From Cupriavidus necator (GTDB lineage: Bacteria > Pseudomonadota > Gammaproteobacteria > Burkholderiales > Burkholderiaceae): DNA of 32,000 nucleotides. The notes under the pieces are model-generated. The model had not been told where the DNA came from and searched no databases. It worked only from the letters and a program-made list of their open reading frames with translations. A program made the position numbers and the translations under genes. Shown here piece after piece: positions 1,394 to 16,983 of the stretch (positions within the stretch are counted from its first letter, which is position 1; each line of letters begins with the position of its first letter). The stretch is from NCBI RefSeq assembly GCF_016127575.1, contig NZ_CP066019.1, forward strand, positions 450,001 through 482,000, written 5' to 3'.

Positions 1394-1416
1394 CGTCCGG
1401 TGCAATGCGCCGGACG
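1394..1416 (+). terminator. GC hairpin downstream of ghrA (possible terminator, no T-tract)
   Basis: 7-bp stem cgtccgg (1394-1400) / ccggacg (1410-1416) with a 9-nt loop, starting 12 nt after the ghrA stop. No U-run follows, so the function is uncertain. Confidence 0.3.
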
Positions 1417-1430
1417 CGTGGAAGGGATGA

Positions 1431-1595
1431 GAGACGCGATCAAAATGGAGCGAAGCGGTTCTGGCTAGGGGGCGAAGCAGGGGACTTGGATCGCGAGGCG
1501 AATTGTTCCAATGCCGCTGTGCCAGGGTGGCGGCAGACAGTACAGGTAGTCCGGCGAGGCCACGCAACAATGACAGATCATTTTGATCGCGTCTC
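1431..1595. repeat. perfect 17-bp inverted repeat pair flanking a 131-bp spacer
   Basis: gagacgcgatcaaaatg at 1431-1447 is the exact reverse complement of cattttgatcgcgtctc at 1579-1595. It lies between ghrA and the P-II remnant at the left edge of the AT-rich island. Confidence 0.85.
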
Positions 1596-1600
1596 CAGCG

Positions 1601-1702
1601 TCAGACTGCCGCTTCTTCCTGCTCACCCGTATGAATGCGGATGACGCGGTCGATCAGCGTCACGAAAATCTTGCCGTCGCCGATCTTGCCGGTAAGCGCA
1701 GC
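1601..1702 (-). pseudogene. 3'-terminal remnant of a nitrogen regulatory protein P-II gene (glnB/glnK-like), N-terminal ~70% missing
   Basis: The minus-strand translation reads [33 protein letters not shown]-stop (TGA = plus tca 1601-1603). This matches the conserved P-II C-terminus (T-G-x-I-G-D-G-K-I-F-V...V-I-R-I-R-T-G-E). Similarity ends upstream (GRAP...), and no minus-strand ORF of 60 aa or more is listed here. Confidence 0.6.
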
Positions 1703-1801
1703 TGGCGCCCGACCTCGTACCGAGTCACCTTGCAGTGAGAGCCGCCAAGCCGTCAGTGGACCACCTTTTGGCCCCCCGTGCGCAAGTTCCCCAACTATGT
1801 C

Positions 1802-2974
1802 CTAAGCAAATGGTCGAATCGATTTGCTGTAGCCGTTCCGGATGCCTGATGAGAAGAACCCGCCGCACTCCGCCTTTCGCGCACAGGGCTCGCATTCTGG
1901 TGCGTATTCGTTCTTCCAGTCAGAGATGGACTTGACATATGCTGGCTCGACATCCGCATTCACCAAGCAGAGTTGATGGTTATACACAGACGTCTTGAGT
2001 CCATAGCTTCTTAGAATCCCGACAGCCGTACTAAGCTCCGTCTTGTAGTCGGCGGGGTCGATCCAGAGCGCATCCAGGTTCGCGCGGGTGAACCCGGTCA
2101 TTTCCAATCCCATTAGCGCGACGTGGTCGACAAACAGAAGATTCCGGGCAATGAATTCTGAAAGCGCAGGCAGACCTTTATAGGTTTGCTTGTGGACCAC
2201 AACACGAATCTCAACTTTCTGATTCAGGCGTTTCAGATTCAGGATGCCTCGAATTGTTTCATCAAAGGCCCCTTCGGCTTGGACAACGTAGTCATGACGT
2301 GCCGGGTCGGCCGAGTAGACTGGGATGCCTATCATCACATCGGGATGCTGAACTGCTGCATATTGTTCAGCAAACGCCGCGGCGGCGAATGTTCGCCCGT
2401 TCGACAGGATGTGCAGGGAGGTACGTGGTAGCCAGTTCCTAATTTGATGAAGCAGATCGATGAATCCGTCGCCGAACAGCGTTGGTTCTCCGCCTGTAAT
2501 GCCCAGCGAACGCGTGTTCCGCGGAATCAGGCGAACGGTCTCCATGGCCTCGTCCAGCAACCAGCGGTCATCAACCTTCTTCGGTGGCTGCGAACACATC
2601 AAGCAATAGTTGTTGCACTGCTCTGTAAGCAGGATGCTGTTGTGGTTGGACTCCGCCCGGAAAAGCGCTCTGATCCTACCGTCGCCGGTCAAGCTGACAA
2701 CATCGCCCTCAGCCAGGTAAGAGAACTCGTCGGTCAACAGGGTGCAGGGGATGTCATCGGTCAGGCTCGTCGGCCGTTCGTTGAACGCGAAATAGTGAGC
2801 GAAGCCGGTGGGGGCCGGCACATTAGATCGGGACAGGTAAGCCCTTGCCCCCCTCAATGGGAGTGGAAGGGCAGGATTCGTACTGAGGCTGAACTGCCGC
2901 CGAGGTGCCGGCGATTGCGGCTGTGGAGCCTTCTCCTCGGCGAGGCGGATAACGCGTCCTGAAAGTGTTAGCAT
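1802..2974 (-). CDS. hxsC: His-Xaa-Ser system radical SAM maturase HxsC
   Basis: Radical SAM CX3CX2C motif (CNNYCLMC) followed by GITGGEPTL. C-terminal Cys cluster CEPCARKAEC-GG. It is the last gene of the hxsA-D-B-C cassette. I prefer ATG at 2974 (MLTLSGRV...) over the track's GTG at 2986; that ATG overlaps the hxsB stop as ATGCTAA. Confidence 0.85.
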   Translation of the reverse strand: MLTLSGRVIRLAEEKAPQPQSPAPRRQFSLSTNPALPLPLRGARAYLSRSNVPAPTGFAHYFAFNERPTSLTDDIPCTLLTDEFSYLAEGDVVSLTGDGRIRALFRAESNHNSILLTEQCNNYCLMCSQPPKKVDDRWLLDEAMETVRLIPRNTRSLGITGGEPTLFGDGFIDLLHQIRNWLPRTSLHILSNGRTFAAAAFAEQYAAVQHPDVMIGIPVYSADPARHDYVVQAEGAFDETIRGILNLKRLNQKVEIRVVVHKQTYKGLPALSEFIARNLLFVDHVALMGLEMTGFTRANLDALWIDPADYKTELSTAVGILRSYGLKTSVYNHQLCLVNADVEPAYVKSISDWKNEYAPECEPCARKAECGGFFSSGIRNGYSKSIRPFA

Positions 2975-4431
2975 CGATTCACCCACCGCATGAAAATTTC
3001 CCTGGCTGCTTCGTCATTGCGCATCTTATCGAGCAGGTACTTGGTAATCCCCATGACGCGCTTGCAGAAGTCGGACTCCGGCTTCCGTCCAAGAACGTCG
3101 CCATACATGCCATGGTGAAACACAGGGTCGGATCCACACCACGGCTCGAACGCACAATCGCTACACATTGGTGCAGACGCCGTGAAGGAGTCTTCGAGGG
3201 CCGTCAGTAGCGCGTCCGCGGTGAATATTTCCTCGTAACTGTTCTGATGAACATTACCGATGCGGAACGTCGTGTCGCCCATCTCACGCAGCATGCGGCT
3301 CTCGTCAGACGCATAGACGTCACCGTCGTAGTTAAACACGACGGCTGCGATGCCGGCGCCTGCAGGAGTCATCAGATCCACAAAGCCAGGGTCTTCGGCC
3401 GACATCATCTTGGTCAGCAACAGGGTGGAGTAGTACTCGGTGAAGGGCGTTCCTGCCTTGTTGAGGGCGAGGATGTAGTCCATTCCCTCTTTGTAGAATT
3501 CGAGCCACCGTTCGGTGTTGTAGGCCTGAAAGCTCTTCGTCTTGAGCGCAAAGCCGTAGGGGGAGAGATGGCGCAGAAAAATACCGTCGAAGCCATGCTT
3601 GAGGTATTCGTCGATGATGTCGCGGACGCGATTCAGACTTGCCGGCGAAGTGGTCATCAGCGCGGATACCGAGTCGTAGCCCACCATGTCGCGGGCGCGC
3701 TTGAGGCCTGAGACAAAGCGCTCGTGACTGTCCCGACCGGGACGCGGCCGGTTCTTGTTATGCAGGTCCGCCGGGCCATCCAGGGAGGATGACAGGAAGA
3801 TCTTGTGGTCGCGACAGAACTCCAGAATCTCATCCGTGGCCAGCGACAAGGTTGTGGTGATAACAAACTGGAGATCCCGGCCTTCCACTTTGTTTATTTT
3901 CTCAGCCTTTTTCACTACATATCGAATCAGCTCGAAGTTCAGTAATGGCTCACCACCTTGAAACTCAATTTTTATAGCGGGGTTCGGGGAACGGAAAACG
4001 AGGTCCAAAGCCTTGTCCGCTGTCTCCGGTGTCATATCGAAGGCCGCTTTGTTCTCCGACTGGCGAGAGACTTGGCAATACTGGCAACTATGATCGCAGC
4101 GTAACGATGCGACAAATATGTGCAGATTCGTGAAGTTGGAAAGCTTACTAAACTTGGTCCGCGTCTTCAGTGTGAGCAGTTCCAAACTAGCTTCGTCACC
4201 GGCTTCACGGAGGAAATGCCGGGATCTCAGCGTAATGTAGTCGGGGTCGCTAGGACTCAAACGATGCGCTACGAGGTCCTCAAGCTGCCGGCGAGATAAA
4301 AAAGCAAACTCGCCGACGGCATTCGTGGCCACCACATTTTCGTTATCCAGGGCTTCAAACCGAAACGGTAGTAACTGATATCGCCCCGCATTCTTGCTTT
4401 GATAGCTCTCTAGGCTGCGAAACTTATTCAT
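2968..4431 (-). CDS. hxsB: His-Xaa-Ser system radical SAM maturase HxsB (SPASM/twitch-type C-terminus)
   Basis: 487 aa with the CX3CX2C motif CDHSCQYC, the block EFQGGEPLL, and the C-terminal auxiliary-cluster-like motif CSDCAFEPWCGSDP...C. The ATG overlaps the hxsD stop (ATGA at 4428-4431). Confidence 0.85.
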   Translation of the reverse strand: MNKFRSLESYQSKNAGRYQLLPFRFEALDNENVVATNAVGEFAFLSRRQLEDLVAHRLSPSDPDYITLRSRHFLREAGDEASLELLTLKTRTKFSKLSNFTNLHIFVASLRCDHSCQYCQVSRQSENKAAFDMTPETADKALDLVFRSPNPAIKIEFQGGEPLLNFELIRYVVKKAEKINKVEGRDLQFVITTTLSLATDEILEFCRDHKIFLSSSLDGPADLHNKNRPRPGRDSHERFVSGLKRARDMVGYDSVSALMTTSPASLNRVRDIIDEYLKHGFDGIFLRHLSPYGFALKTKSFQAYNTERWLEFYKEGMDYILALNKAGTPFTEYYSTLLLTKMMSAEDPGFVDLMTPAGAGIAAVVFNYDGDVYASDESRMLREMGDTTFRIGNVHQNSYEEIFTADALLTALEDSFTASAPMCSDCAFEPWCGSDPVFHHGMYGDVLGRKPESDFCKRVMGITKYLLDKMRNDEAAREIFMRWVNRC

Positions 4432-4718
4432 TGTTGCAACCCTGTGCGCGAGAACGCGTACGCTAAAATCAGGTTTCTCGCTGCCTCTGTTTCGTTTTTT
4501 ATTTGCAGGCGGAGTTGTTGGTCGAGGAGTTCACGTTTGAAGTTGGCTAGAACGTCTTCCAGTGGTGCTGCGATGCCCCCGACCAATTCAATTTCGCAAA
4601 CTACGGAGGTCGGACTTTGCGAGATCAGCACCGTGAGCCGGTCTATGAATCTGTATGCCGCCTTTTGTACCGCCTCCAGGCAGTAGACGGCGGAATCTAG
4701 TTCCAAACGTGTTGTCAT
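4428..4718 (-). CDS. hxsD: His-Xaa-Ser system protein HxsD (small accessory protein)
   Basis: 96 aa, located between the precursor and maturase genes. It contains ELLDQQLRLQI, which fits the LLNDYxLRE-type motif after which the HxsD family model was named (from memory). Translationally coupled to hxsB. Confidence 0.75.
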   Translation of the reverse strand: MTTRLELDSAVYCLEAVQKAAYRFIDRLTVLISQSPTSVVCEIELVGGIAAPLEDVLANFKRELLDQQLRLQIKNETEAARNLILAYAFSRTGLQQ

Positions 4719-4732
4719 GGGGACCTTGGAGG

Positions 4733-4755
4733 AGCCGACCCACGAGGAGTCGGCT
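4733..4755 (-). promoter_or_regulatory. intercistronic stem-loop between hxsA and hxsD
   Basis: 7-bp stem agccgac (4733-4739) / gtcggct (4749-4755) with a 9-nt loop, inside the 58-nt hxsA-hxsD spacer. No U-tract follows on the minus strand. Confidence 0.4.
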
Positions 4756-4776
4756 ATGAAATGTGTTTGTTTCTGC

Positions 4777-5073
4777 TTAGTACCGGCTGGAGTAGTGCGA
4801 CGAATGCGACCGGTGCGACGAATGTGATGAGTGCGACTGATGCCACGCCATCAGCTTTCCCTCATGGGCGTCCGAGCGCTTCAGGATGAAATTGAAGACG
4901 TCGCCGGCAGAGTCTGTCACTGCGATTCTTTCGAGAGATTTGGCGTCAATCGAAGTGGTCGATGAAGCATCAACCGAATGTGTCGGCGCTTGCGACGGCA
5001 GCTGCGCTGCAGTGGCGCCCTGCGCCGCAAAACCTGCGGCGACTGCCGCAAATGTTTTGAGGAACCCCTTCAT
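4777..5073 (-). CDS. hxsA: His-Xaa-Ser repeat precursor protein HxsA
   Basis: 98 aa. The N-terminus MKGFLKTFAAVAAGFAAQGATAA looks like a signal peptide. The C-terminus reads W-HQS-HSS-HSS-HRS-HSS-HYS-SRY-stop, i.e. six H-x-S repeats. Strong SD (GGGAGA) lies 5 nt upstream of the ATG at 5073. Confidence 0.85.
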   Translation of the reverse strand: MKGFLKTFAAVAAGFAAQGATAAQLPSQAPTHSVDASSTTSIDAKSLERIAVTDSAGDVFNFILKRSDAHEGKLMAWHQSHSSHSSHRSHSSHYSSRY

Positions 5074-5129
5074 ACCGTCTCCCTTTTTATTAGTCCGCCT
5101 CTCTAGAAATTCAGCCTGCGGATGTATAA

Positions 5130-5171
5130 CCCATTTGAGTTAAATTCCTCCCATTTGTACTAAATGGGAGG
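5130..5171. promoter_or_regulatory. candidate operator upstream of hxsA: 10-bp perfect inverted repeat plus a direct half-site copy
   Basis: cctcccattt (5147-5156) and aaatgggagg (5162-5171) form an inverted repeat with a 5-nt spacer. The half-site core cccatttg also occurs at 5130-5137 and 5150-5157. The element lies 57-98 nt upstream of the hxsA ATG. Confidence 0.35.
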
Positions 5172-5867
5172 CAAGGCGTATTGGCCGTGTAAGGTCTTGG
5201 TACACCTTGTAAGGAAGTGTAACATCCGATTTTTGAATTGGCGGCATAAGGTGCTATGTGTGCTTTGTTATGCTCTCGCACATGTGGTTTTTGACAAGAA
5301 TCCTAAATCGAAAGTGGATACCGAGGCGCTTTGGAAGTTCTGCGCTTATGATCGATCGACGTGCGACATCGGAAGCCCATCCCGAGTGGTACCTCCGAAC
5401 CTTTGGCGCGGTCCGGCCAACTCTGGACAGAAGTGCGGGGGTTGGTCGTGGATGTTCACCAGTCCGAGGCAACGGGGATTCCAACGAGATCAAATACGTC
5501 AGCCCGACCCATTGGCCACAGGCGGACGAGGGGAAGATGAATTTCCCGGGTTGCAGCCCCTATCGAGTGAATATGCTAACTGACAGCAAAGAGGTTTTCA
5601 ATGCGAAGGCAAATGCTAGTCCTGCGTGTGGGAATTGACCGTGGGGGCGGGAACTATTAGGAGCCCCGATTTGCGGATCGCAGTTTTGAGTACACATTGA
5701 TTCCGGAATTTAAGGTTCATCGCTGATTTCCGGGAAGGCACAGATCGGCCAAGAGCTGTCGCCACCGCAATTTGCGATGATTCAACGGGCGCGCTTGCCG
5801 TCCTCGGTGGCCGTAGTGCATCATCCCTGCCGTACAAATCCACAAGCGCCTTACGGAGCTAACGCAC

Positions 5868-7094
5868 ATGGCGTACTCGAAGTCCAGGACCAGTCTGCTG
5901 ATTGCTTTTCTCATTGCGAGCAGCGCCACTTTCGCGCAGCATGAGGTCAATTTCCACGACCCCATCAATATCGAAGGCCACGTGTCGGAAAAAAATGGCC
6001 CACAACATGCAGGTGGAGCAGAAAAGGGTGGCCCGGAGGGCCCACGCGACAAGCCAGCTAACGGCCCAACCACCACGATTCAGGCTCAACCCATTGATGT
6101 AGTTGCGGAAATGTCCCGCGGTCGAATCAGCGGGAAGGATGCTGTTCCTGTCACGGTGGGAGGCGTCACCTACATGGTGTCGCCTCAAGCAAAGGCGGAC
6201 CTGAAGGAATTTATCAAGACGTACAACGCGACCGGCCACGTCGGACAGCTTGTCGCTGCAGCCGCAACCCTTTTCGCAATGTTTGGACTCGTCACCGAGC
6301 CCGATCTGAGTCAGATCGATTTCAACATCGACGAGACTGTAATGGTGCTGTCGGCGCCTTCGATCTTTGCAGCAGCTTGGCGCGCCCAGGCCTTGGACTA
6401 TGTTCGAGGCTACATCAATCCCAGCCGCGCCCATACCCAAGAGGGTCGCATGTGGCAGCGGATGGAAGATCTGATCCGCGAGCCGGGGAGGTATCGCGAC
6501 GGCGGTATCAAGCGGGAGCCGAATGGGCAAATACAAATGCGCGCGCTGCCCGCGCAGCGGTATCGCGATGTGCCAGGCGACTATCCCCTGACGCAAGCGG
6601 ACGAGGTCGAACTGGGACGGCTGATCGATAGCCTGCGACGGAACCCCATTGCCATGGACTACCTTGCTAAAACTGACGCCGTGTTGGGCATCTATACGCA
6701 GGACCCACAAGGACGGCCAAGACTGTCCGCACGAGACCAATACCTCATGAACATGGCGCTACTGCGACTCGCGCCCCAAGAGAAGACACAACTCGCACAA
6801 GCATTCTGGCGAAACACGCAGTTTCCGGCCGCACTCACGCCGGCATTCTGGTCATCCATGTCGGCCTACCTGCAGCGTGAGGAATGGGATCGCAATTCGC
6901 ACATCGCAATCCTGCGTCACATGGCGGGCTTCAGCGACGACCTTGGCTTTCCGGACGAGTTGCCGAGGTATGACGATGGGTTCTGGACGAACATCGCACC
7001 AGCAGCGTTGGCGGCCACTGGGCCGATCTTCGTCTTTCCCCAGCACGGCCCGCAGGCTTGGACCTTCCACTATCCCGGTCCCGGAGGCCAGTAG
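5868..7094 (+). CDS. hypothetical secreted protein (no recognisable domain)
   Basis: 408 aa with a Sec-type N-terminus (MAYSKSRTSLLIAFLIASSATFAQ|HE). Amino-acid composition is balanced compared with the Arg/Cys-rich antisense ORF 5859-6740. GGAG lies 11 nt upstream of the ATG. Confidence 0.65.
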   Translation: MAYSKSRTSLLIAFLIASSATFAQHEVNFHDPINIEGHVSEKNGPQHAGGAEKGGPEGPRDKPANGPTTTIQAQPIDVVAEMSRGRISGKDAVPVTVGGVTYMVSPQAKADLKEFIKTYNATGHVGQLVAAAATLFAMFGLVTEPDLSQIDFNIDETVMVLSAPSIFAAAWRAQALDYVRGYINPSRAHTQEGRMWQRMEDLIREPGRYRDGGIKREPNGQIQMRALPAQRYRDVPGDYPLTQADEVELGRLIDSLRRNPIAMDYLAKTDAVLGIYTQDPQGRPRLSARDQYLMNMALLRLAPQEKTQLAQAFWRNTQFPAALTPAFWSSMSAYLQREEWDRNSHIAILRHMAGFSDDLGFPDELPRYDDGFWTNIAPAALAATGPIFVFPQHGPQAWTFHYPGPGGQ

Positions 7095-7410
7095 CAACGC
7101 GTGCGATTCGCCCGGCCGGAGTAGCGGAACGATCGAGTTCGTCGACTACCTGCAGCCTCCGCTATACCGCGAAGGCGGGTCCTTCCAGCATCGAAACGGC
7201 GTAGGGCAACGGACGGCGGCCACCTTTGGCACCATCTTGCACGTCTCCACGACGTGTGGGTCCAAGCGCGCCTTTGTCACAGTCTGCCGTCAGAGTGCGT
7301 CCAGCGCGGGCCGCGGGCTGCTTTGGGTCGGATTCGGCCGGTTGCGACGTCAACGGCCCAGGCACTCTCCCAGAGACAGTAAGATCAATCACGCAGATCG
7401 GCGAAGATCC

Positions 7411-7437
7411 AAAAAAAAACCGCAGCCGAAGCTGCGG
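7411..7437 (-). terminator. rho-independent terminator (minus strand; possibly weakly bidirectional)
   Basis: Stem ccgcagc (7420-7426) / gctgcgg (7431-7437) with loop cgaa. The A9 run at 7411-7419 gives a U9 tail on the minus-strand transcript. It lies ~50 nt downstream of the 73-aa ORF stop. Confidence 0.75.
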
Positions 7438-7486
7438 TTATTCCTTCACGCCGGAGCAACACCCCCGGCCACATCAGCACCACCAC

Positions 7487-7708
7487 TCACTCCACCGGAC
7501 AAATCTCCCCCGCCGTCCGGTCAAACTTCGCCTTAATCATCGCCACCAGACACCGGATACCAAAGCAAGCATCCGAACATTCGCTTTCCACTTCCAACAG
7601 CACTAGCACCCTGTCCAATCCAGCACTGATGCAATTCAGCGATTCGCGACAATCTTCCGGATTGGCGATCAAGACGGTTTGTTGTTTCGACGCGGTTTGC
7701 TCTTCCAT
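7487..7708 (-). CDS. hypothetical small acidic protein (73 aa)
   Basis: ATG at 7708 is preceded by AGGAG with a 6-nt spacer, and a canonical terminator follows. The sequence (…NPEDCRESLNCISAGLDRVLVLLE…CLVAMIKAKFD) vaguely recalls DUF3077-type proteins; that is an unverified memory. Confidence 0.6.
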   Translation of the reverse strand: MEEQTASKQQTVLIANPEDCRESLNCISAGLDRVLVLLEVESECSDACFGIRCLVAMIKAKFDRTAGEICPVE

Positions 7709-8019
7709 TGCGAACTCCTATCAAAGTTGGAAGACCCGCCTGATGGATAAAAATGAAGGGTGGCGGGCCAGACAGCGGGGGTACCAAACCGGTCTTCACA
7801 GAGTAATCCGGCCAGCCTTTCGGCTGCCCCGCCCGGCCCGCCAAAAACTGAGGAGACGTGGACGCGCGAACTTGGCCGTATGAGACGGCCGTCTGTAAAG
7901 ATCCGGGTTGGTACGCCCGATCACCGTTGTCTCGGTGATGGCTCCAGTGTTCCCATCTCTGTCGTCTGTGGCGATCAGACGATTCGCAATCTTCCGGCGC
8001 TTCGCTGTCAGGCAGTTGC

Positions 8020-8520
8020 CTAGCGAATCCTGTCGAACCCACCAGCAGCCCAACGCTCTGCGCTGTCCCGCGTCAGCCGAAAGTCGGGCCGCACCTTCAC
8101 AGTCGCCAGCACATCGCCGAAGGAATCCTCAGCCGTGAGCGTGCCAAAGGGCTCGAATTCATCCGGCGTAATGACGAGCTTCACAATCACAGTGCCGGAT
8201 TCAGACTCGATACTGACCTGCTTGTTGAGCTGCGCATGCAATTGCTGCTCATGCCGCCGGATAACCTCTGAAGCCGTCTTGACCAGCGTCTGGTGCGCAG
8301 TGGCATCCAGCGGCTTGGGATCGACCTTGTTTCGCCCCATGGTCCAGGGACCGACCAGCGCGGGCTCGGCGCTGCCGCCGCGGATCATTTCGACTGCCCA
8401 GCCGTCGCCGTCCTCGTTCTTGATGACGCGGGCGGTCCAGCCCTTGTCGCGCCAGAGGCGGGGCTCGTGGATGGCGGTGGATTCGTGCTCGGAAAGGGCG
8501 TCGTCGGTGTGGTGCATCAA
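8020..8520 (-). CDS. hypothetical protein (166 aa)
   Basis: Composition is protein-like (…WTARVIKNEDGDGWAVEMIRGG…). TTG at 8520 and ATG at 8517 are adjacent candidate starts. I recognise no domain. Confidence 0.55.
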   Translation of the reverse strand: MMHHTDDALSEHESTAIHEPRLWRDKGWTARVIKNEDGDGWAVEMIRGGSAEPALVGPWTMGRNKVDPKPLDATAHQTLVKTASEVIRRHEQQLHAQLNKQVSIESESGTVIVKLVITPDEFEPFGTLTAEDSFGDVLATVKVRPDFRLTRDSAERWAAGGFDRIR

Positions 8521-8749
8521 TCTCGTGGTACGGGTCGGGGAACCCGCGAGGATACTATAGGGGCCGACAGGCAGCGTTCGGCCGTGCGTGTGGGCGCCTG
8601 GCAGGTTGCTGAAAGACCGGCCGGCGGCGGGGTTGCTCCCCTCTTAAATGAGTTCCTTCATCAAGCGCTCGACAGTCATCGGTCGATTGGAATTCAGGAG
8701 CAATGCTCGCATTGCGGACGCACCTTCAGGAACATGCCGGAAGGTCATG

Positions 8750-9436
8750 CTATCCCTGATCCTTCTCGGACAGCGCGCTTTCCAGTAGCTCACGTGCCTC
8801 CCTTCCATGAAGCCAAATGCAACGCTTCCATTCTTCGGTGGCTCCGTGCCTTCCTAAATATGCCTCGCGCTCTTCGGCGGTTAAGGATTCCCAGAATGAA
8901 GACCAATAGTTATCCCACCAATATTCAATGTCGCCTTGCAGGAATCCCAGCTTAAGCGGTTCGCTAATCTCTGGAAAGGCGACCCACGGAGGCGGTGGAC
9001 TTGAGTTGGCCACTACTATGCGATCCAACACGGAAGTATCGTTGGTCATCATTGATACTATTGATCCAGAAAATTCATTACTGAACGCAATGGAGATGAA
9101 AAAATCTCCAGCCTCATTGCCGCTGCGTCTTATATACAAGTGCTCATCAACTTTATCGAATCCGTTTTTAATGCCTTCGATAAGCTCATGTACCTTATTC
9201 GACTCCAGTTGAAAGTGAGCGTAAAAAGCATTTATACCCGTTCCGGGTAATAAGCTGGAAATCTCAGGGTACCTAGAAGGCCTCTTTTCAGTCGCTGATA
9301 TTGGCACCATATCTAGCGGACGAGAAAATAAACCTTTCAATTCTTCCAGCGAGCGGCCGAAGCGTGCTCGGAGGGCTCGATTCCGCTCCTCGGCGATACG
9401 CCTGTGAGTCAACATGTCGCGCAATTTCTTGAGCAC
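8750..9436 (-). CDS. hypothetical protein (228 aa), AT-rich gene with a Trp-rich C-terminal region
   Basis: GTG at 9436 is preceded by GGAG with an 8-nt spacer. The C-terminal block PPPWVAFPEISEPLKLGFLQGDIEYWWDNYWSSFWESLTAEEREAYL looks like a folded domain that I cannot name. Confidence 0.6.
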   Translation of the reverse strand: MLKKLRDMLTHRRIAEERNRALRARFGRSLEELKGLFSRPLDMVPISATEKRPSRYPEISSLLPGTGINAFYAHFQLESNKVHELIEGIKNGFDKVDEHLYIRRSGNEAGDFFISIAFSNEFSGSIVSMMTNDTSVLDRIVVANSSPPPPWVAFPEISEPLKLGFLQGDIEYWWDNYWSSFWESLTAEEREAYLGRHGATEEWKRCIWLHGREARELLESALSEKDQG

Positions 9437-9628
9437 TTATCTCACTCCATTTGATCGACCACCCAGTCCGCGCCCGAATAACCTAGGCTTCCGCCGATGA
9501 TGCCATGGCTAGCGCCGCGCCGGCAGTAGCCGGGGCGCTTGCGCTATCGATCACGGGACAGCCCATCAGGGTGCCGTTCGCGGCCAGCGTCGGATACGCA
9601 TATGGGTCTTGCGCCGTGCGACAGTCTG

Positions 9629-11992
9629 CTAGGCGCGGCTGAACATCGACTTCCTGATAATGGCATGCACGCCCCAGTTGCCATTCACCACCTGCGTGAT
9701 ACCAAAATCCACTGCAACAGAGATCAGCGCAACCGCCTCATCTTCACTCAGCCCCTTGACCGACATAAGGAAGCGGCGTGTCTTGCGGAAGGCGTCGCGC
9801 ATGGCGTCGTCCAGGGTGGACTTCAGGTAGATATGGCTCTGCGCCATCTGGCCCAGTTCAGCCAGGTGGTTGGGCGAGCTGAAGCCATGCAGGATCCATT
9901 CGTCGGCGGTTTCCACCAGCGGGTAGCTCAGGTCGGCGAAGGGAGCGTCGCGGTCGATCATGGTGCTCTTGTGCAGGACGAGCTGGAAGTCACCGGTCAG
10001 CGAGCATTCGATGGCCGTGCCGCACAGCTCGGAGTCTCCCTGCGAGGCATGGGGATCGCCAATCGACAGCAGGGCGCCCGGCACGGCTACCCTGAGGTAG
10101 ACGCTGGCGCCCCGGGTGACGCGCCAGTTGTCCAGGTTGCCGGCGAAGCTGGAGGGCGGGATGGAGTCGATCAGGCCGTCCTGCGCCGGCGCCACGGCGA
10201 TGACGCCGAAGTGGGGGCGGACCGGTATCTCGATATCGCGCAGCACGTCGTAGTTCTTGACGATGGTGTCGTGGTCGACCGGCACGCCGGGATAGTCGAT
10301 GGTCGGGTGCAGCACGCCGAACGGATCGCGCTGCGGCGTCCAGCGGAAGTTGTAGACCGCGCGCGCACGGCTGTCGGCGCGTTCGCAATCGATCTCGAAG
10401 ACGGTGACCACTTCGCGCTCGCGCGGCTCGGTCAGCATGTCGCGGTAATGAAAGCCCCACCAGGTCGCGGCGTTGCTGCCGAAGGCCCTGCCGGCAAAGC
10501 GCGGGTTGCAGCACGGGCGCGGGCGCACGTCCAGGATGCGCACCTCCAGCACATCGCCGGGCATGGCGCCGCGCACCGCGACCGGGCCGGTGCAGATATG
10601 CACGCCAAAGCCTTCGCCGGCGCCGCGGCCGTAGACCGACGCATCGATGGGGCCCGCGCCGCGCCGGTTGACGTTCTTCTGCTCCGCGGTCCAGTGAAAG
10701 ACGCTTTCGGCGCCGGCGTCGCCGTCGATCATGCGTTCCCGGTCGTCAGAGGCGTGCTGCGTCAGGGTTTCGATGGTGACGGTGTCGCCGGGCATGACCT
10801 CAAGCACGGGCGGCAGGTCGTGGCTGAGATAGCCCCAGTGCACGGTCTTGTCCGTGGCCTGCAGCCAGTGGTGCCGGCCTTCCGGGCGGGCGGCGTGCGA
10901 GCGCGCCTGGGTGATGGGGACGATGGTGGGCGCCGCTTGCAGGCGCGCAGCAGGGCCATCGTTCGCGGGCGCGCCATGGCTAGCGGGAGCCCGCTTCGCA
11001 TTGGCCGGAAGCCCGCGGGAGACATTCTGCGGTGGGCGATGCTCGGGCGTGTTCGCGGTCTGCTCACGGTAGGCGCGGGGCGAGATCCCGAACTGTTCGC
11101 GAAACGCGTGGCTGAAGTGCGAAGGGTCGTTGAAGCCCCAGCGATAGCAGATGTCGGAGACCGAGAGCTTGTCGTACTGGTGGTTCGCCAGGTCGGCCCG
11201 GCATCGCTCGAGCCGGCTGGTGCGCAGGTAGGCGGAAAAGCTGCTGCCGGATTTCTCGAAGAGCTTCTGCAGGTAGCGGGCCGACATGCGCTCGTCCGCG
11301 GCGATGGCGGCGAGGCTGAGTTCCGGCTCGGCAAGGCGTGCGTCGATGCGGCTGCAGACGCGCGCAAAAACGGCCGCGCGCGAGGGCGTCATGTCCGGCG
11401 GTGCGCTGGGCTGGCTGTCGGCCAGCGCGGCGTCAAGGCAGGCGGTGATGGTGTTGTCGAAGGGCTGGATGGCCTTGGCGTTTGCGGACACGATGGTGTC
11501 GAAGCTGGCCGCCATGGACTGGAGCAGGCGGGCAAACAGTTCAGCGGCGTCGCCGCTCAGCACCAGCGCGGAGCGAGGCAAGGGGGCCGTGATGCGTGCG
11601 CTCAGCAATGCCTGGCCGATATGCACGATCAGCATGCGGAAGCTGGTGGCCAGGGCCAGCCTGCGGGCGGCGTGTTCCGGCACGCAGACCACCTGCCCCG
11701 GCCGCAGCGGTTCACGCAGTTCCGGCGCAGCGAGGTGCGCTTCGCCTTCGGTCAGCATCAGCAGCATCAGGCCGCGGCCGTCGCCGCTGGTGATGGCCAG
11801 CGTCTGGGGGACCGATGCAATGCAGGTCAGCTCGATGCCCGCGGGGGTGGTCCGCGACTCGATCGTGCCGTGCAGGGTGTGATCGGCGCACAGGCTTTCG
11901 CAATGCAGGCGTGCGGCGCGGAGTTCGTCACGCCAGGCTGCGCCGCGCCGGTTGTGTGGATAGGCTTCGGTGGAAAAACGCAAAAGGTGCAA
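9629..11992 (-). CDS. AraC-family regulator (effector domain + HTH) fused in-frame to an acetamidase/formamidase-family domain
   Basis: One uninterrupted frame. The AraC HTH reads …RYLQKLFEKSGSSFSAYLRTSRLERCRADL…ICYRWGFNDPSHFSHAFREQFGISPRAYRE and ends ~11060. A Pro/Ala/Arg-rich linker spans 11059-10865. The amidase domain (TVHWGYL…GDVLEVRILDV…NLDNWR…SIGDPHASQGDSELCGTAIE…FGITQVV) runs to the stop at 9629. Start reassigned to TTG at 11992 (AGGGAGG + 5 nt), because the track's start at 12199 overlaps the upstream XapX gene. Confidence 0.7.
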   Translation of the reverse strand: MHLLRFSTEAYPHNRRGAAWRDELRAARLHCESLCADHTLHGTIESRTTPAGIELTCIASVPQTLAITSGDGRGLMLLMLTEGEAHLAAPELREPLRPGQVVCVPEHAARRLALATSFRMLIVHIGQALLSARITAPLPRSALVLSGDAAELFARLLQSMAASFDTIVSANAKAIQPFDNTITACLDAALADSQPSAPPDMTPSRAAVFARVCSRIDARLAEPELSLAAIAADERMSARYLQKLFEKSGSSFSAYLRTSRLERCRADLANHQYDKLSVSDICYRWGFNDPSHFSHAFREQFGISPRAYREQTANTPEHRPPQNVSRGLPANAKRAPASHGAPANDGPAARLQAAPTIVPITQARSHAARPEGRHHWLQATDKTVHWGYLSHDLPPVLEVMPGDTVTIETLTQHASDDRERMIDGDAGAESVFHWTAEQKNVNRRGAGPIDASVYGRGAGEGFGVHICTGPVAVRGAMPGDVLEVRILDVRPRPCCNPRFAGRAFGSNAATWWGFHYRDMLTEPREREVVTVFEIDCERADSRARAVYNFRWTPQRDPFGVLHPTIDYPGVPVDHDTIVKNYDVLRDIEIPVRPHFGVIAVAPAQDGLIDSIPPSSFAGNLDNWRVTRGASVYLRVAVPGALLSIGDPHASQGDSELCGTAIECSLTGDFQLVLHKSTMIDRDAPFADLSYPLVETADEWILHGFSSPNHLAELGQMAQSHIYLKSTLDDAMRDAFRKTRRFLMSVKGLSEDEAVALISVAVDFGITQVVNGNWGVHAIIRKSMFSRA

Positions 11993-12089
11993 TTGAACCT
12001 CCCTGGCATCACGCTGCAACAGCGAAAACGGGCGGACATTGCTGTCCGCCGCGCATCCAAAGCATTTCCTGCGAAGGCCGGGCCCTCCG

Positions 12090-12281
12090 CTAGCCGAACA
12101 GCAACTGCCCCCGCATCGCGGCCACCAGTACGAATCCCGCGAACGTGCCAAAGATGGCGAAGATCCCGCCGAGCACGTTCGGGGCCGGTATCGGTGCACG
12201 TACCGCAGTGTAGATAACGCCGGTCACCAAGCCAACGGCTGCGGCCTGCAGCTCGGTGCTGCCCAATGCAATTTCCACCAT
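12090..12281 (-). CDS. XapX-domain (DUF1427-like) small membrane protein, copy 2
   Basis: 63 aa: MVEIALGSTELQAAAVGLVTGVIYTAVRAPIPAPNVLGGIFAIFGTFAGFVLVAAMRGQLLFG. Two hydrophobic helices flank a P-I-P-A-P-N-V turn. GGGGA precedes the ATG at 12281; ATG at 12299 is an alternative start. It is the internal part of track ORF 12090-12620. Confidence 0.65.
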   Translation of the reverse strand: MVEIALGSTELQAAAVGLVTGVIYTAVRAPIPAPNVLGGIFAIFGTFAGFVLVAAMRGQLLFG

Positions 12282-12555: not shown

Positions 12556-13581
12556 TCAGCCCTTGTCCTTGGGCGGGAAGATCGAGCGCGGCATGGTGCA
12601 ATGGATGCCCTGGGTGCCATCGACGACCTGCGTCACGCCGAAGTCAGCCGAGACGCTCATGAGCGAATAGGCATCGTCGCGCGAGAGTCCCTGTTGCTCG
12701 GTCAGCAGGTGGATCATGTCGCGGGCCGCGTTCTTGCCGGCTTCATCCAGGTCTTCATGGAAGCCGTGGACGACCCAGCAATCCGGCGTTTCCAGCAGCG
12801 GCGAGGGGAAGTGGAAGTCCTTGCGCAGGACCACCTGGAACAGGACGTTCAATGAGGCCTCGATGGCGGTGCCGCTGATCTCGCCGTCGCCTTGCGAGAT
12901 ATGCGGGTCGCCGATCGAGAACAGCGCGCCGTCGACCTGGACCGGGTAGTACATGGTGGCGCCCGCGCCGATGCGCCAGTTGTCGATATTGCCGCCATGC
13001 AGGCCGGGCTCGACGGTGGTGACGCGGCCGCGCGCGTCGGGCGCGACGCCAGCGGTGCCCAGGTGCGGGCGCACGGGAACCCGCACACCGGCCAGCGCCG
13101 GCTGCCTGCAGCATTCCCGCTCATCCACGAGCTTGCCGGGGATGGTCATCTTGCCGGGGTAGTCGAAGGCGTACAGGGCATGCGCGGTGTTGGAGCGCTG
13201 GTCCAGCTCATAGATGGTGACCCGCTCCTTCTCGAACTCTTTGTACAGCTGGCCCCAGTGCGCCGCGGCATTCGCCCCGAAACGGAAGCGCGGAATCATC
13301 TGCAGGTAGCGCACCTCCAGCACGTCGCCGGGCTTGGCGTCTTCGACATAGATAGGGCCGGTCATGATGTGCACGCCGGGGTTGCGGTCGTCGTGGGGAA
13401 TCGCCCGGAAGATCTCGCGAATGGCGTCGTCCATCATCAGGTCGGGGGCATCGCCGGCATGGTGGGTTACCGCTTCGGCGCGGATGAGGTCGCCGCTTTT
13501 CACGGTCAGGGCGGGCGCCTTGGCGGCATCGAAGTAGCCCCAGTGGACGGTCTCGGGGCGGGCGGGCAGGTCGTGCAGCAT
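12556..13581 (-). CDS. acetamidase/formamidase family protein
   Basis: 341 aa with ETVHWGYFD, PGDVLEVRYLQ, GGNIDNWR, SIGDPHISQGDGEISGTAIE and DFGVTQVVDG. It is a paralog of the C-terminal domain of the 9629-11992 product. Confidence 0.9.
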   Translation of the reverse strand: MLHDLPARPETVHWGYFDAAKAPALTVKSGDLIRAEAVTHHAGDAPDLMMDDAIREIFRAIPHDDRNPGVHIMTGPIYVEDAKPGDVLEVRYLQMIPRFRFGANAAAHWGQLYKEFEKERVTIYELDQRSNTAHALYAFDYPGKMTIPGKLVDERECCRQPALAGVRVPVRPHLGTAGVAPDARGRVTTVEPGLHGGNIDNWRIGAGATMYYPVQVDGALFSIGDPHISQGDGEISGTAIEASLNVLFQVVLRKDFHFPSPLLETPDCWVVHGFHEDLDEAGKNAARDMIHLLTEQQGLSRDDAYSLMSVSADFGVTQVVDGTQGIHCTMPRSIFPPKDKG

Positions 13582-14045: not shown

Positions 14046-15374
14046 CTATTGCGATGGCGCCTCGGGCCATTTCCCCTTGCGGGGAAGGCGCATATCGAAC
14101 TCGGTGAACACGTGCTCCTCGGAGCGGCAGCTGATGCTTGCCCCCCAGCTGTTCAGCACCTTCTGGCAAAACGCCAGTCCGATGCCGGTGCCGCGATGTG
14201 CCGGGTAAGAGAAGAAGGGCTGGAACATCCGGGCCAGCACTTGCGGCGGCACGCCCGTGGCGGTGTCGCGGAACACCACATGGACGGCGTCGGGCCGGAC
14301 CTCGCAGCGGATATGGATGGTGCCCTTGCCGGCCCGCTTGGTCGCTTCCAGCGCGTTCTTCAGCAAGTTGGTCGTGACCAGCCCGAACAACTGGGCGTTG
14401 CCCATCACGTAGGCGGGGCCAGGCAGGTCGACGGTGACCAGATCCAGGTCGCTGTGCTCGAACGGAAACCGGCCGACAGCGTCGCGGATCACACCGCCCA
14501 GTTCGAACAGCTCCTGCGTGGCGTTGTCCGGGTTCTTGGAGTTGGCGACCAGCAGTTCAATGCTGTTGCTAATATGGGCCAGGTCTGATTCCATCCGGGC
14601 CACGGCCTGCATCAGGCCGTCGCGCTGCGGCGTGTCCTGGTCCAGGGCTGCCGGCAGCCGCGCCTTGAGGCCCCTGGCAGTCATGGCCAGGCTGGTCAGC
14701 GGCGTGCGCAGTTCGTGCGCGACGGTGGCCAGCGCGGCGGCCATCCCGCGCCGCTTCTGTTCGGCCAGCAGCTGGCGGTCCATCTTGATCACCACCAGCA
14801 CCGCGATGACAAAGCCGATCACCGGCAGCTGCAGCAGTACCGGCTCCCACGGGATTCCGCCCATGGAGTTGCCCGCCAGCACGAACAGCGCAATGGCTGC
14901 TGCGGCCCCTGAGAACAAGGCAATGGTCGCGAACGCGGTGTTGAAGTGATACAGGATCACCACCGCGATGATGACCGATTCGGCCCACACCATGGAGCCG
15001 CCATTCTCCAGGTAGAAGAAGATAAAGGCGAACGGCAGGCCTATGGTAATGGCAAAGAGTGCATAGGGCGGCAGCCAGCGCCGGTCCGAGAAGGCGGAGG
15101 CGAACAGCAGCGGCACGAACAGCGCGGTGCAGACCAGGCGCAGCCAGAGGTTTTCATAGGGCTGCGGGAAGATGTAGGACCAGATCACGTAGTACAGCGG
15201 GTGTCCGATCACGCCCAGCGCCCCCACCATCTGGATCCGGCGCAGCCGGATGACGCTCTCCTCGTCCAGCAGCGTAGCCCGCGCGGCGGTCTCGAATACA
15301 GTCTGCCACGCATCGCGGGCGACGCCGGCAAGTGAGGTGCGGCCGTCTTCCGCTTGCGCTACCTTTGCATCCAT
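14046..15374 (-). CDS. cqsS: CqsS/LqsS-type alpha-hydroxyketone autoinducer sensor histidine kinase (no receiver domain)
   Basis: The polytopic N-terminus (…GALGVIGHPLYYVIWSYIFPQPYENLWLRLVCTALF…) aligns by eye with V. cholerae CqsS (…GMLGFPAYYFIWEYWFPQSYENLGLRCAAAVLF…). H-box is HELRTPL, N-box is LLKNALEA, G-box is GTGIGL. The protein ends ~30 aa after the G-box. Start set at ATG 15374, 9 nt after the cqsA stop; the track's start at 15461 overlaps cqsA. Confidence 0.8.
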   Translation of the reverse strand: MDAKVAQAEDGRTSLAGVARDAWQTVFETAARATLLDEESVIRLRRIQMVGALGVIGHPLYYVIWSYIFPQPYENLWLRLVCTALFVPLLFASAFSDRRWLPPYALFAITIGLPFAFIFFYLENGGSMVWAESVIIAVVILYHFNTAFATIALFSGAAAAIALFVLAGNSMGGIPWEPVLLQLPVIGFVIAVLVVIKMDRQLLAEQKRRGMAAALATVAHELRTPLTSLAMTARGLKARLPAALDQDTPQRDGLMQAVARMESDLAHISNSIELLVANSKNPDNATQELFELGGVIRDAVGRFPFEHSDLDLVTVDLPGPAYVMGNAQLFGLVTTNLLKNALEATKRAGKGTIHIRCEVRPDAVHVVFRDTATGVPPQVLARMFQPFFSYPAHRGTGIGLAFCQKVLNSWGASISCRSEEHVFTEFDMRLPRKGKWPEAPSQ

Positions 15375-15382
15375 CTCCAGGA

Positions 15383-16675
15383 CTACTCCTCGCGGGAGCC
15401 TGCCAGCGACCCGCTTGTGGGATTTTGAGACTTGCGCCGGGCCCGGCGCGTCGAGGACCATTCATCCAGCCGGACTTCGTCGCGGATGCTGGCGAGCACG
15501 CCGACCAGGCGGTCGATTTCATTGGCGGCAAGTTTCGCATGCAGCGTAAGTCGCATCAATGCCCGATTCTTCGGTGTTGCCGGCGCACAGAATACCGCGC
15601 CGAAGATCCCGCGGCTCTGCAGCGCATCGCGCAGCACCTTGACTTGCGGCTCGGTTCCCGCCTCCAGGCCGATGATCTGCTCGGAGCCTTCGCTGATGTT
15701 GTAGCCCAGTTCGGCAATCGCAGCCCGGGTGTCGCGAGTGATGGCGTGCAGGCGCGCACGGCGCTCATCCGCCGTGGCGACGAAATCCGTCACGGCATCG
15801 AACCACGCAACCTCATGGCGCAGCAGCCCGGAACTGAAAATGGCCGGCCGGGACTCAACCGCGAAGAAGTCCTTGAAGTCGGTCGAACAGGCAACATAGC
15901 CGGCGCGGCCGGCAAACGCCTTGGCCAGCGAGGCCGTGCGGAAGTGTACGCGCTCGGACAGCCCGAGCGCGCGCACCAGGCCGCCGCCAGACGGCCCATG
16001 GGTGCCGAGCGAGTGCGACTCATCCACCACCAGCACGCAGCCAGACGCCTCCGCCAGGTCGACATAGTCCTCCAGCGGCGCCACGCTGCCGGTGGTGCTG
16101 TAGACCGAGTCCACCATGATCACGCCCGGGCCGAAGCGCTCAAGCTGGCGGCGCACGTGCTCGCAATCGTTGTGGCGCACCGGCACGGCCTGCGCGCCCG
16201 CGGCGATGATGCCCTCCCACAGGGAGGCATGCCCGTTCATGTCGATATAGACCGGAATGCCGGGGCCGGCAATGCACTGCACCAGGCCGACGTTGGCGGC
16301 CCAGCCGGACTGGGCGATCAGCCCGTCCTCGGCCTGCATCAGGTCTGCGATCTTGCGCTCGACGCGCCGCTGCGGGGTGTCGCCGTGCTGGAACACGGAC
16401 GACATCAGCAACTCCGGCTCCTCATTGAGGAAGGCCCGCGCCTGCGCCTGTACCAGAGAGGTCTCGCCGAGCAGGCAGAGATAGTCGTTGCTGCTCAGGT
16501 GCAGTGCATCGGGCCCGGGCGTGCGTCCGTGAAGCAGATGATCGCCGCCCCAGAGCTTGCCCATCCGCTCGTCGAAATGTTGTGCCATCCGCGCCGTGAT
16601 CCATGGCGGCAGCGTGGGGGCTTTGGCGCGAGAGGCGTGGCGCATCGAGTGCGGAGGCTCGGCTTCGGAGAACAT
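15383..16675 (-). CDS. cqsA: CqsA/LqsA-type autoinducer synthase (PLP-dependent alpha-oxoamine synthase family)
   Basis: Blocks SQSGWAANVGLVQ, VDSVYSTTGSVAPL, VDESHSLGTHGPSGGGL, HFRTASLAKAFAGRAG, PAIFSSGLL, EQIIGLEAG and FGAVFCAPATPKNRALMRLTL match V. cholerae CqsA almost block for block (from memory). Start reassigned to ATG 16675 (SD GAAGGAAAG); the upstream part of the track ORF looks non-coding. Confidence 0.9.
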   Translation of the reverse strand: MFSEAEPPHSMRHASRAKAPTLPPWITARMAQHFDERMGKLWGGDHLLHGRTPGPDALHLSSNDYLCLLGETSLVQAQARAFLNEEPELLMSSVFQHGDTPQRRVERKIADLMQAEDGLIAQSGWAANVGLVQCIAGPGIPVYIDMNGHASLWEGIIAAGAQAVPVRHNDCEHVRRQLERFGPGVIMVDSVYSTTGSVAPLEDYVDLAEASGCVLVVDESHSLGTHGPSGGGLVRALGLSERVHFRTASLAKAFAGRAGYVACSTDFKDFFAVESRPAIFSSGLLRHEVAWFDAVTDFVATADERRARLHAITRDTRAAIAELGYNISEGSEQIIGLEAGTEPQVKVLRDALQSRGIFGAVFCAPATPKNRALMRLTLHAKLAANEIDRLVGVLASIRDEVRLDEWSSTRRARRKSQNPTSGSLAGSREE

Positions 16676-16983
16676 CGGCTTTCCTTCTACAGGTCGGGTA
16701 ATCAGTGAGATCGGTGGCAAGGCTCTGCATGGCGGTTGCGGCAAAAAGCTGCCGTCCGCGCGCGACGCGGCCGCACCCAGTCCTTCCGGCGAGGTGCCAT
16801 TGCTGACAAGTCGGGGGAGTCCTGTTGACGTAGCGACCACTGTGCCAGCCTTACTCAGCGATTGTGACCGGACTTCCACCAATCCAACGTCCGTTTGGAG
16901 TGGGGGGTGCCGGGTTGAGACAGCCGCGTCGTGGCCGCACCTTCGCCGGCCGATAGGCCGATTTCTCACTGTAAAATGCCTTT

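Follow-up and report, generated by a model that had tools for sequence, protein, structure and literature searches.

Based on its profile and database matches, the product of the gene at positions 4777 to 5073 (minus strand) of a 32,000-nucleotide stretch of Cupriavidus necator DNA (RefSeq assembly GCF_016127575.1, contig NZ_CP066019.1, positions 450,001 to 482,000; hereafter the window) is HxsA2, an annotated member of a curated His-Xaa-Ser (HxS) repeat protein family in a model strain. We consider it probable that HxsA2 belongs to an HXS-type cassette, in which it would be matured in the cytoplasm, exported through the Sec machinery and put to use in defence at the cell envelope. The parts of the gene on which this explanation is built are the following:

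Positions 4777 to 5073, minus strand: hxsA2 coding sequence, 98 amino acids plus stop, encoding the HxS repeat precursor/effector (from the open reading frame list, the NF038296 profile and RefSeq identity).
Positions 5078 to 5083, minus strand: ribosome-binding site GGGAGA, read from the sequence, 4 nt upstream of the hxsA2 ATG.
Positions 5008 to 5073, minus strand: predicted signal peptide MKGFLKTFAAVAAGFAAQGATA, codons 1-22, Sec-type and signal-peptidase-I-type, with the cut predicted between ATA and AQL.
Positions 4933 to 5007, minus strand: variable linker, codons 23-47, slightly acidic, with many Ser, Thr, Ala, Pro and Gln residues.
Positions 4843 to 4932, minus strand: conserved pre-core element ERIAVTDSAGDVFNFILKRSDAHEGKLMAW, codons 48-77, a candidate recognition or leader-like element for HxsD, HxsC or HxsB.
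Positions 4780 to 4842, minus strand: core HQSHSSHSSHRSHSSHYSSRY, codons 78-98, six HxS repeats with SHYSSR(Y) as a nearly invariant C-terminus.

Translation of the open reading frame (ORF) gives MKGFLKTFAAVAAGFAAQGATAAQLPSQAPTHSVDASSTTSIDAKSLERIAVTDSAGDVFNFILKRSDAHEGKLMAWHQSHSSHSSHRSHSSHYSSRY and confirms the layout given in a preliminary description of this DNA, namely an N-terminal signal, a spacer of about 55 residues and C-terminal repeats. The name used there, HxsA, has to be replaced. The NF038296 (HxsA2) profile scored 90.9 bits against a curated cut-off of 48, with a full-length match (residues 2-97 on profile positions 4-96 of 96), whereas the TIGR03979 (HxsA) profile reached 18 bits in the repeat region only, far short of its cut-off of 121.65; as controls, the HxsA proteins of Klebsiella and Rhizobium scored 162.8 and 218.8 bits with TIGR03979. 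Furthermore, the protein is 100% identical to the RefSeq entry "His-Xaa-Ser repeat protein HxsA2 [Cupriavidus necator]" and the window maps to chromosome 2 of C. necator H16 (AM260480.1, about 519-540 kb), while the C. taiwanensis orthologue is already annotated as a 'conserved exported hypothetical protein'. The gene is the first of an operon, hxsA2-hxsD-hxsB-hxsC, with all genes on the same strand and all four products above their curated NCBIfam cut-offs. This A2-D-B-C synteny is a further likeness to the NF038296 family, from which the window protein shows no structural difference. A Pfam scan found no domain in HxsA2, PG_binding_1 included, and by its domain content the protein is an anchorless minimal variant. 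A full-text literature search found no experimental characterisation of the NF038296 family, and a scan for sigma-70 promoters and terminators around hxsA2 gave nothing above shuffle expectation.

The N-terminal segment, MKGFLKTFAAVAAGFAAQGATAA, has the charged n-region, hydrophobic h-region and A-x-A-like site that were first read from it. The charges are K2 and K6, the h-region FAAVAAGFAA falls within the 7-15 residues set for a Sec-type signal and is uncharged and Ala-rich with a best 10-residue Kyte-Doolittle (KD) mean of 2.02, and the top-scoring cleavage site is A20-T21-A22 ahead of A23 (ATA22 before AQL). These values come from a heuristic, home-made rule set that demands a net positive charge ahead of the hydrophobic stretch, a best 10-residue KD mean of 1.6 or more in a stretch that begins among the first 15 residues, and a small-residue site at -3/-1 downstream of that stretch. 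HxsA2 satisfies this test, as do 62 of 5000 shuffles of it (1.2%) and, with the longest start, 16 of 150 unrelated flanking ORFs (11%); a very permissive choice of start raises the latter to 49/150. Among database homologues of HxsA2, 64 of 66 pass, and the two failures are N-terminally over-extended gene calls with an MKKFL... segment inside. In the homologue alignment the N-terminal sequence drifts (e.g., MKGFLKTFAAVAAGF..., MKKRNFLIPLASLVATL..., MKPKKFLLPLAALVTAV...) while the n/h/c layout is preserved, which is the pattern expected of a targeting signal, and AlphaFold2 models residues 4-19 as a helix. These results support reading the N-terminus as an export signal whose physical character, rather than its sequence, is conserved in the HxsA2 family. 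As for its class, the protein has no Cys and thus no lipobox, lacks a twin arginine, and its best 19-residue hydrophobicity (1.12) is too low for a membrane anchor, so that its features are those of neither a lipoprotein, a twin-arginine translocation (Tat) substrate nor an anchored protein. Hydrophobicity did not discriminate between dependence on the signal recognition particle and on SecA, as reference signal peptides of both kinds overlap, and no claim is made on that point.

The 55 residues that separate the signal segment from the repeats were at first taken for ordinary sequence, a term that suits only their first part. Residues 23-47 have no conserved columns in the homologue alignment and are modelled as disordered, with a predicted local distance difference test (pLDDT) score below 50 at residues 33-41; the larger linker segment 23-55 has a net charge of -2. 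Residues ~48-77, on the other hand, are conserved, with the family consensus GDxFxFVLxRSxxxGxLMAxH, and form a modelled beta-hairpin (strands 48-53 and 59-64) whose mean pLDDT of 81 at residues 51-60 is the best in the HxsA2 model. When 81 HxsA-type proteins of all architectures were aligned on the first core His, the element proved to be held in fixed register: hydrophobic residues occupy positions -14, -13 and -12 in 86%, 63% and 62% of the proteins, Lys, Arg or Pro follow at -11 and -10, then a Gly/Ser/Asp turn, then hydrophobic residues at -4 and -3, and Ala in 75% at -2. Klebsiella HxsA carries a similar element with an offset of ~2 residues (...LVIAPLNTEVPFYIAGH). A conserved element in fixed register that is modelled as a hairpin indicates that a leader-like recognition element probably persists next to the core, and the last ~15-30 residues of the spacer are thus the likelier site of enzyme recognition. 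The preliminary description saw here a departure from leader-core logic. Its view that the signal peptide serves export stands, but the usual logic is probably retained, with a signal peptide added ahead of it.

The six HxS repeats run from H78 to S95 and are followed by a 3-residue tail. Their Ser and His columns are invariant in the homologue alignment and, with His counted as neutral, the core has a charge of +2, offset by -2 in the remainder of the mature protein. By analogy with the E. coli protein discussed below, the modification is most likely to fall on the last repeat, SHYSS.

The three genes downstream encode the predicted maturation proteins:

Positions 4428 to 4718, minus strand: hxsD, 96-aa accessory protein (TIGR03976, 61.6 bits; cut-off 50).
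Positions 2968 to 4431, minus strand: hxsB, 487-aa radical S-adenosylmethionine (SAM)/SPASM maturase (TIGR03978, 640.6 bits; cut-off 370).
Positions 1802 to 2986, minus strand: hxsC, second radical SAM maturase (TIGR03977, 422.7 bits; cut-off 267.9).

The genes are tightly packed, with the hxsD stop overlapping the hxsB start (ATGA) and hxsC overlapping the end of hxsB. For hxsC, the GTG at 2986 gives 394 aa and the ATG at 2974, chosen by public gene callers (L090), 390 aa. The radical SAM and auxiliary-cluster Cys motifs are intact in both enzymes (CxxxCxxC at residue 112 and Cx2Cx5C at 423 in HxsB; at 124 and 365, respectively, in HxsC). HxsB also gave weak matches to the anaerobic sulfatase maturase (71 bits; cut-off 349) and QhpD (84 bits; cut-off 453) models. 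HxsB, HxsC and HxsD all fail the rule-based signal-peptide test and have no 19-residue segment with a KD mean (KD19) above 1.5, in agreement with the earlier reading that they lack signal peptides, and look like cytoplasmic-type proteins; three other window neighbours likewise fail. HxsD is modelled with high confidence (pLDDT 91) in a b-a-b-b-a-a topology and keeps, as invariant columns, the D66/R70 equivalents of an LLNDYxLRE motif. Its identification as a PqqD-like RiPP (ribosomally synthesised and post-translationally modified peptide) recognition element was rejected, as no PDB structure matched at E<=0.001 and no PDB sequence matched by profile; the best structural matches were an S6 permutant and Pcc1, with a TM-score of ~0.5 and E = 0.02-0.03. 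That the exposed three-stranded sheet of the HxsD model could pair with the pre-core hairpin is only a suggestion.

The Hxs system was reportedly first described in a 2011 paper by Haft and Basu (cited in PMC9062424). Experimental work on HXS was found in one study, together with its preprint (Li et al., Nat Commun 2026, PMC13128918). In E. coli, a cassette of the order D-B-C-A with a 214-aa HxsA has broad anti-phage activity through blocked DNA entry (PMC13128918). There, SignalP predicted a signal peptide in HxsA only (residues 1-22); replacing it with a His tag abolished both periplasmic HxsA and defence, and mutation of the peptidoglycan-binding domain also abolished defence (PMC13128918). 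N-terminal processing of E. coli HxsA requires HxsB, HxsC and HxsD and persists, less efficiently, without the signal peptide, and the authors term the pathway non-canonical (PMC13128918); since cleavage needs the three maturation proteins, it is not plain signal-peptidase cleavage. The same study reported a +8 Da modification on SHRSS, the last HxsA repeat, complex formation between HxsC and HxsD, the binding of DNA by periplasmic HxsA with its basic repeats, a need for residues 23-47 in activity, and export of HxsA fragments by both Sec and Tat signals, and its model has cytoplasmic maturation followed by export (PMC13128918). Of the HXS systems that it surveyed, 99.7% were from Pseudomonadota and 99.6% had the D-B-C-A order; HxsA2 and Cupriavidus are never mentioned (PMC13128918).

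The window cassette resembles this system in having the same four protein families, an effector that consists of a signal peptide, a hydrophobic pre-core element and tandem HxS repeats, and maturases without signals, whose action in E. coli precedes and is required for periplasmic accumulation of HxsA. The earlier argument that modification must come before export is thus what has been shown for E. coli HxsA, and by analogy it should apply to HxsA2. Recognition through the pre-core element also fits the E. coli data, as residues 23-47 are needed for activity there and processing survives replacement of the signal peptide. The differences are the gene order (A2-D-B-C rather than D-B-C-A), the length of the effector (98 against 214 aa) with the HxsA2 core at the extreme C-terminus, the absence from HxsA2 of a Ser/Thr-rich linker and of PG_binding_1, and the last repeat (SHYSS in HxsA2, SHRSS in E. 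coli).

Put together, the proposed course of events would begin with the synthesis of the 98-aa precursor in the cytoplasm, as suggested by an ORF with a ribosome-binding site. Going by homology and the E. coli data, HxsB and HxsC, together with HxsD, would modify the C-terminal HxS core in the cytoplasm, and they would locate it through the pre-core element ~3-15 residues before the first His rather than through the signal peptide. The Sec-type signal peptide would then carry the modified, still largely unfolded protein across the inner membrane, with a cut near ATA22-AQL and possibly further HxsBCD-dependent N-terminal trimming as in E. coli. A dedicated exporter and a leader protease are both missing from the cassette, and in our proposal the general Sec machinery stands in for them. 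The product would be a small periplasmic peptide with a repeat array charged through His and Arg and without a peptidoglycan anchor. Its most likely role would be envelope-level defence against phage DNA entry, as in HXS, although on this last step we judge the case to be about evenly balanced.

Cytoplasmic modification of proteins bound for the periplasm has older precedents in the Ser-type sulfatase system AtsA/AtsB and in QhpC/QhpD, where radical SAM/SPASM enzymes of the AtsB and QhpD type act before or during export of the substrate. Those substrates differ from HxsA2 in being enzymes or enzyme subunits, not repeat peptides. A parallel in export logic, and in that only, is offered by the bufferins (BufA/BufB/BufC), RiPP precursors of 80-120 aa with Sec signals that are modified in the cytoplasm by an enzyme and a partner protein, exported through Sec and active in the periplasm, where they bind copper; their modification does not require the signal peptide (Leprevost et al., PNAS 2024, PMC11626156). 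The window cassette is not a member of that group, which relies on an MNIO enzyme with a DUF2063 partner and on Cys-derived thiooxazoles, whereas here two radical SAM enzymes accompany a Cys-free His/Ser core. A signal peptide on a cytoplasmically modified protein, including one with His/Ser repeats, is therefore already known from E. coli HXS (2026) and the bufferins (2024).

To place HxsA2 among its relatives, we used a census of 80 loci (L010-L089) whose HxsB is at least 48% identical to that of the window, scanned for ORFs with at least three tandem HxS units. As these are the 80 best matches to one HxsB, the census is biased to its relatives and the proportions are not comparable with those of the published survey (PMC13128918). 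An HxS ORF was present in 74 of the 80 loci (79 ORFs in total) and in 76 of the 79 cases lay immediately upstream of hxsB on the same strand, which in annotated loci is the hxsD side (A-D-B-C). The A-D-B-C order was also found in L001 and L003-L006, and A2-D-B-C synteny is common to Pseudomonas and metagenomic loci. HxsB identity was 59-70% among A2-type loci, 44% to Adhaeribacter and 27-31% to Klebsiella and Rhizobium. Short ORFs made up 61 of the 79, with a median of 94 aa and the core 2-6 residues from the C-terminus, and 57 of them satisfy the signal-peptide rules; of the four that do not, one is truncated and the other three have a longer n-region. This short form is the commoner one (56 of the 74 loci with an HxS ORF), including loci of Pseudomonadota, Acidobacteriota, Nitrospirota and Actinomycetota-type lineages. 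Close HxsB relatives with the A gene first were observed outside Pseudomonadota in Actinomycetota, myxobacteria, Planctomycetota, Acidobacteriota, Nitrospirota, Nostoc and Verrucomicrobiota.

The 18 long ORFs, 15 of which pass the test, have the unit of signal peptide, pre-core element and HxS core fused to extra modules. PG_binding_1 occurs in the HxsA-type proteins of Klebsiella, Rhizobium and Adhaeribacter, a CHRD domain in one long form (L055) and a weak PEGA-like domain in myxobacteria. In the Actinomycetota long forms a C-terminal hydrophobic, transmembrane-like segment is followed by an Arg/Lys tail, which by the positive-inside rule places the core outside. Such modules are sensible only outside the cytoplasm, so that they support export independently of the signal-peptide heuristic.

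Several observations weigh against the explanation proposed for HxsA2. The protein lacks the peptidoglycan-binding domain that is essential for E. coli defence, so that the E. coli mechanism may not transfer, and the window HxsB is only ~31% identical to HxsB of the Klebsiella/E. coli type. Mature HxsA2 has a net charge of 0 with His neutral, which makes DNA binding less evident for it than for the 'basic' E. coli repeats. The signal-peptide call depends on our own rule set, and the motif [FWY][LIMV]xP, found at the N-terminus of 39 of the 61 short census ORFs against 3 of 150 control ORFs, is more conserved than a Sec signal needs, which suggests that the N-terminus may have a second role. 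Finally, PADLOC has no model for the HXS system, and the immediate window neighbours match no defence family; PADLOC v2.0.0, run on the cassette and its island neighbours, returned only weak viperin-model matches to the two radical SAM enzymes and no HXS-specific hit.

The missing anchor also raises the idea that anchorless HxsA2 forms a separate functional class that works differently from E. coli HXS, and is not a mere truncated copy of it. We think this rather doubtful. Without an anchor, the product could be a freely diffusing radical-SAM-modified His/Ser peptide, and its target (phage channel, metal or other) and mode of retention could then differ from those of the published model. On this reading the over-conserved N-terminal motif, which has true twin arginines in a few lineages, could do double duty in export and in transfer from the maturation complex. 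How an effector can act without the anchor to peptidoglycan on which E. coli HXS depends is, in any case, the concrete question raised here. If HxsA2 cassettes do serve in defence like E. coli HXS, then the industrial chassis C. necator H16 possesses a barrier to the entry of phage DNA at the level of its envelope and, at 98 aa, HxsA2 would be the simplest substrate on which to study the radical SAM chemistry (+8 Da) and the hand-over to export.

The same lack of an anchor domain and the position of the core at the extreme C-terminus could also be explained by a diffusible RiPP-type product, an HxS peptide of ~20-45 residues released to the periplasm or medium after the linker is trimmed post-export, with an antimicrobial, signalling or surface-active role in place of that of an anchored gatekeeper. 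Two HxsA2-type precursor genes upstream of hxsB, a common RiPP trait, were found in five related loci (L029, L030, L032, L039 and L048), adjacent in four of them and about 0.8 kb apart in L039, and the paired cores differ (e.g., HGSHGSHGSHRSHRSGY and HRSHRSHASHRSHRSGR in L029). The HxsBCD-dependent processing of E. coli HxsA beyond its signal peptide (PMC13128918) would suit such trimming as well. However, no immunity gene, outward exporter or protease was seen in the cassette or the surveyed neighbours, and in the long relatives this core is tied to the envelope, which points to a cell-bound role. A released peptide is accordingly an unlikely explanation in our assessment.

Metal binding or a chaperone role had been put forward in the preliminary description, but neither gained support here, blocking of phage DNA entry being the only function tested in the family. 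In its most developed form the idea would be that of a periplasmic metal buffer or metallophore, in which the exported His-rich tail, modified or not, chelates Cu, Ni or Zn in the manner of the bufferins. Six His among 21 residues at a flexible C-terminus would suit a chelator, and Cupriavidus is a metal-adapted genus. The bufferins themselves are a precedent for Sec-exported, cytoplasmically modified periplasmic metal binders (PMC11626156). Against this, the cassette has no gene for metal resistance or metal regulation beside it, either in the window or in the surveyed loci, its occurrence is patchy and island-like, among neighbours of mobile and defence type, and two radical SAM enzymes would be a heavy investment for a chelator akin to a His tag. 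Thus, we rate the metal buffer as improbable.

The over-conserved [FWY][LIMV]xP motif, together with the HxsBCD-dependent, non-canonical cleavage in E. coli (PMC13128918), would also be expected if the N-terminus were mainly a leader bound by the maturation proteins and the product stayed cytoplasmic. This we hold to be very unlikely, since E. coli HxsA with its signal peptide replaced is lost from the periplasm yet still processed (PMC13128918), the extracytoplasmic domains and C-terminal hydrophobic anchors of relatives are sensible only after export, and the pre-core element is the better-conserved recognition candidate. In its full form, basic-basic-x-[FWY][LIMV]-x-P, the motif of HxsA-type N-termini goes beyond generic signal-peptide features and resembles a degenerate Tat motif, true RRxFL motifs occur in 5 of the 79 census ORFs (e.g., MDRRKFLKP in L054 and RRAFLIPV in L064/L066), and the h-region is Ala/Gly-rich and weakly hydrophobic; but export of the modified cargo through Tat rather than by threading through SecY is barely credible for a protein that begins MKGFLKTF, with neither the motif Pro nor any Arg in its n-region (MKGFLK), whose 66 close HxsA2 homologues have no RR, and whose E. 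coli relative could be exported in fragments by Sec and Tat signals alike (PMC13128918).

Sec export of a cytoplasmically matured HxsA2, with envelope defence as its purpose, is also in keeping with the genomic context. Neither a transporter nor a leader protease lies beside the cassette, whether in the window itself or in loci L001 and L003-L006; among 150 flanking ORFs of the census loci, two match ABC_tran, no protease family is among the 25 most frequent Pfam families listed, and no conserved extra gene was found. The absence of an accompanying transporter or leader protease agrees with the use of the general Sec machinery. Around the cassette, over a low-GC islet of ~8 kb (window ~1400-9600), the G+C content is 53-60%, against 65-70% in the flanks. 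No integrase gene was identified in this islet, and the window as a whole yielded no tRNA. Census neighbours are heterogeneous and include integrases, resolvases and a Tn3 transposase, with some matching PARIS AriA, HNH, MADS, AbiL and Schlafen-type helicase models; the PADLOC hit rates are read here without a genome-wide baseline. In L005 and L006 the cassette lies inside an island with an integrase and a primase-helicase, and the classical Klebsiella cassette is found between insertion sequence elements on conjugative plasmids. This context suits a mobile defence module, although it is not proof of one.

Within the operon, the 58-nt spacer between hxsA2 and hxsD holds one further feature, seen by RNA folding:

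Positions 4733 to 4755, minus strand: hairpin AGCCGACUCCUCGUGGGUCGGCU.

The hairpin is not statistically distinctive (z-score -1.3). C. phytorum (L010, ~3678-3698) has a hairpin at the same place, but with another sequence and followed by UUUCAUU. The window hairpin may work as an attenuator or mRNA stabiliser and so tune the ratio of precursor to enzymes.

Across a 795-bp spacer from hxsA2 lies a divergent ORF (5868-7094, plus strand, 408 aa) with a signal-peptide-like N-terminus, MAYSKSRTSLLIAFLIASSATFAQ, and no NCBIfam, Pfam or PADLOC match. It was considered as a conserved anchor partner and rejected, being absent from the other loci and genera examined. The islet holds two more ORFs without a family (8020-8520 and 8750-9436, minus strand).

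Further along the window, an ORF at 9629-12199 (minus strand; 856 aa in the ORF list but 787-796 aa in public gene calls) encodes an AraC/FeaR-type regulator fused to an FmdA_AmdA formamidase/acetamidase domain, and next to it lies another FmdA-like gene, of 341 aa (12556-13581, minus strand). An arylsulfatase-family ORF at 21900-23513 (minus strand), with about 240 bits, is under the equivalog cut-off and is unlinked to the hxs cassette. The window also encodes a CqsA/LqsA-like synthase of an alpha-hydroxyketone quorum-sensing autoinducer (15383-16969, minus strand; NF005526, 614.7 bits; cut-off 428), followed by a sensor histidine kinase (14046-15461, minus strand) whose best match, a weak one, is LuxN.

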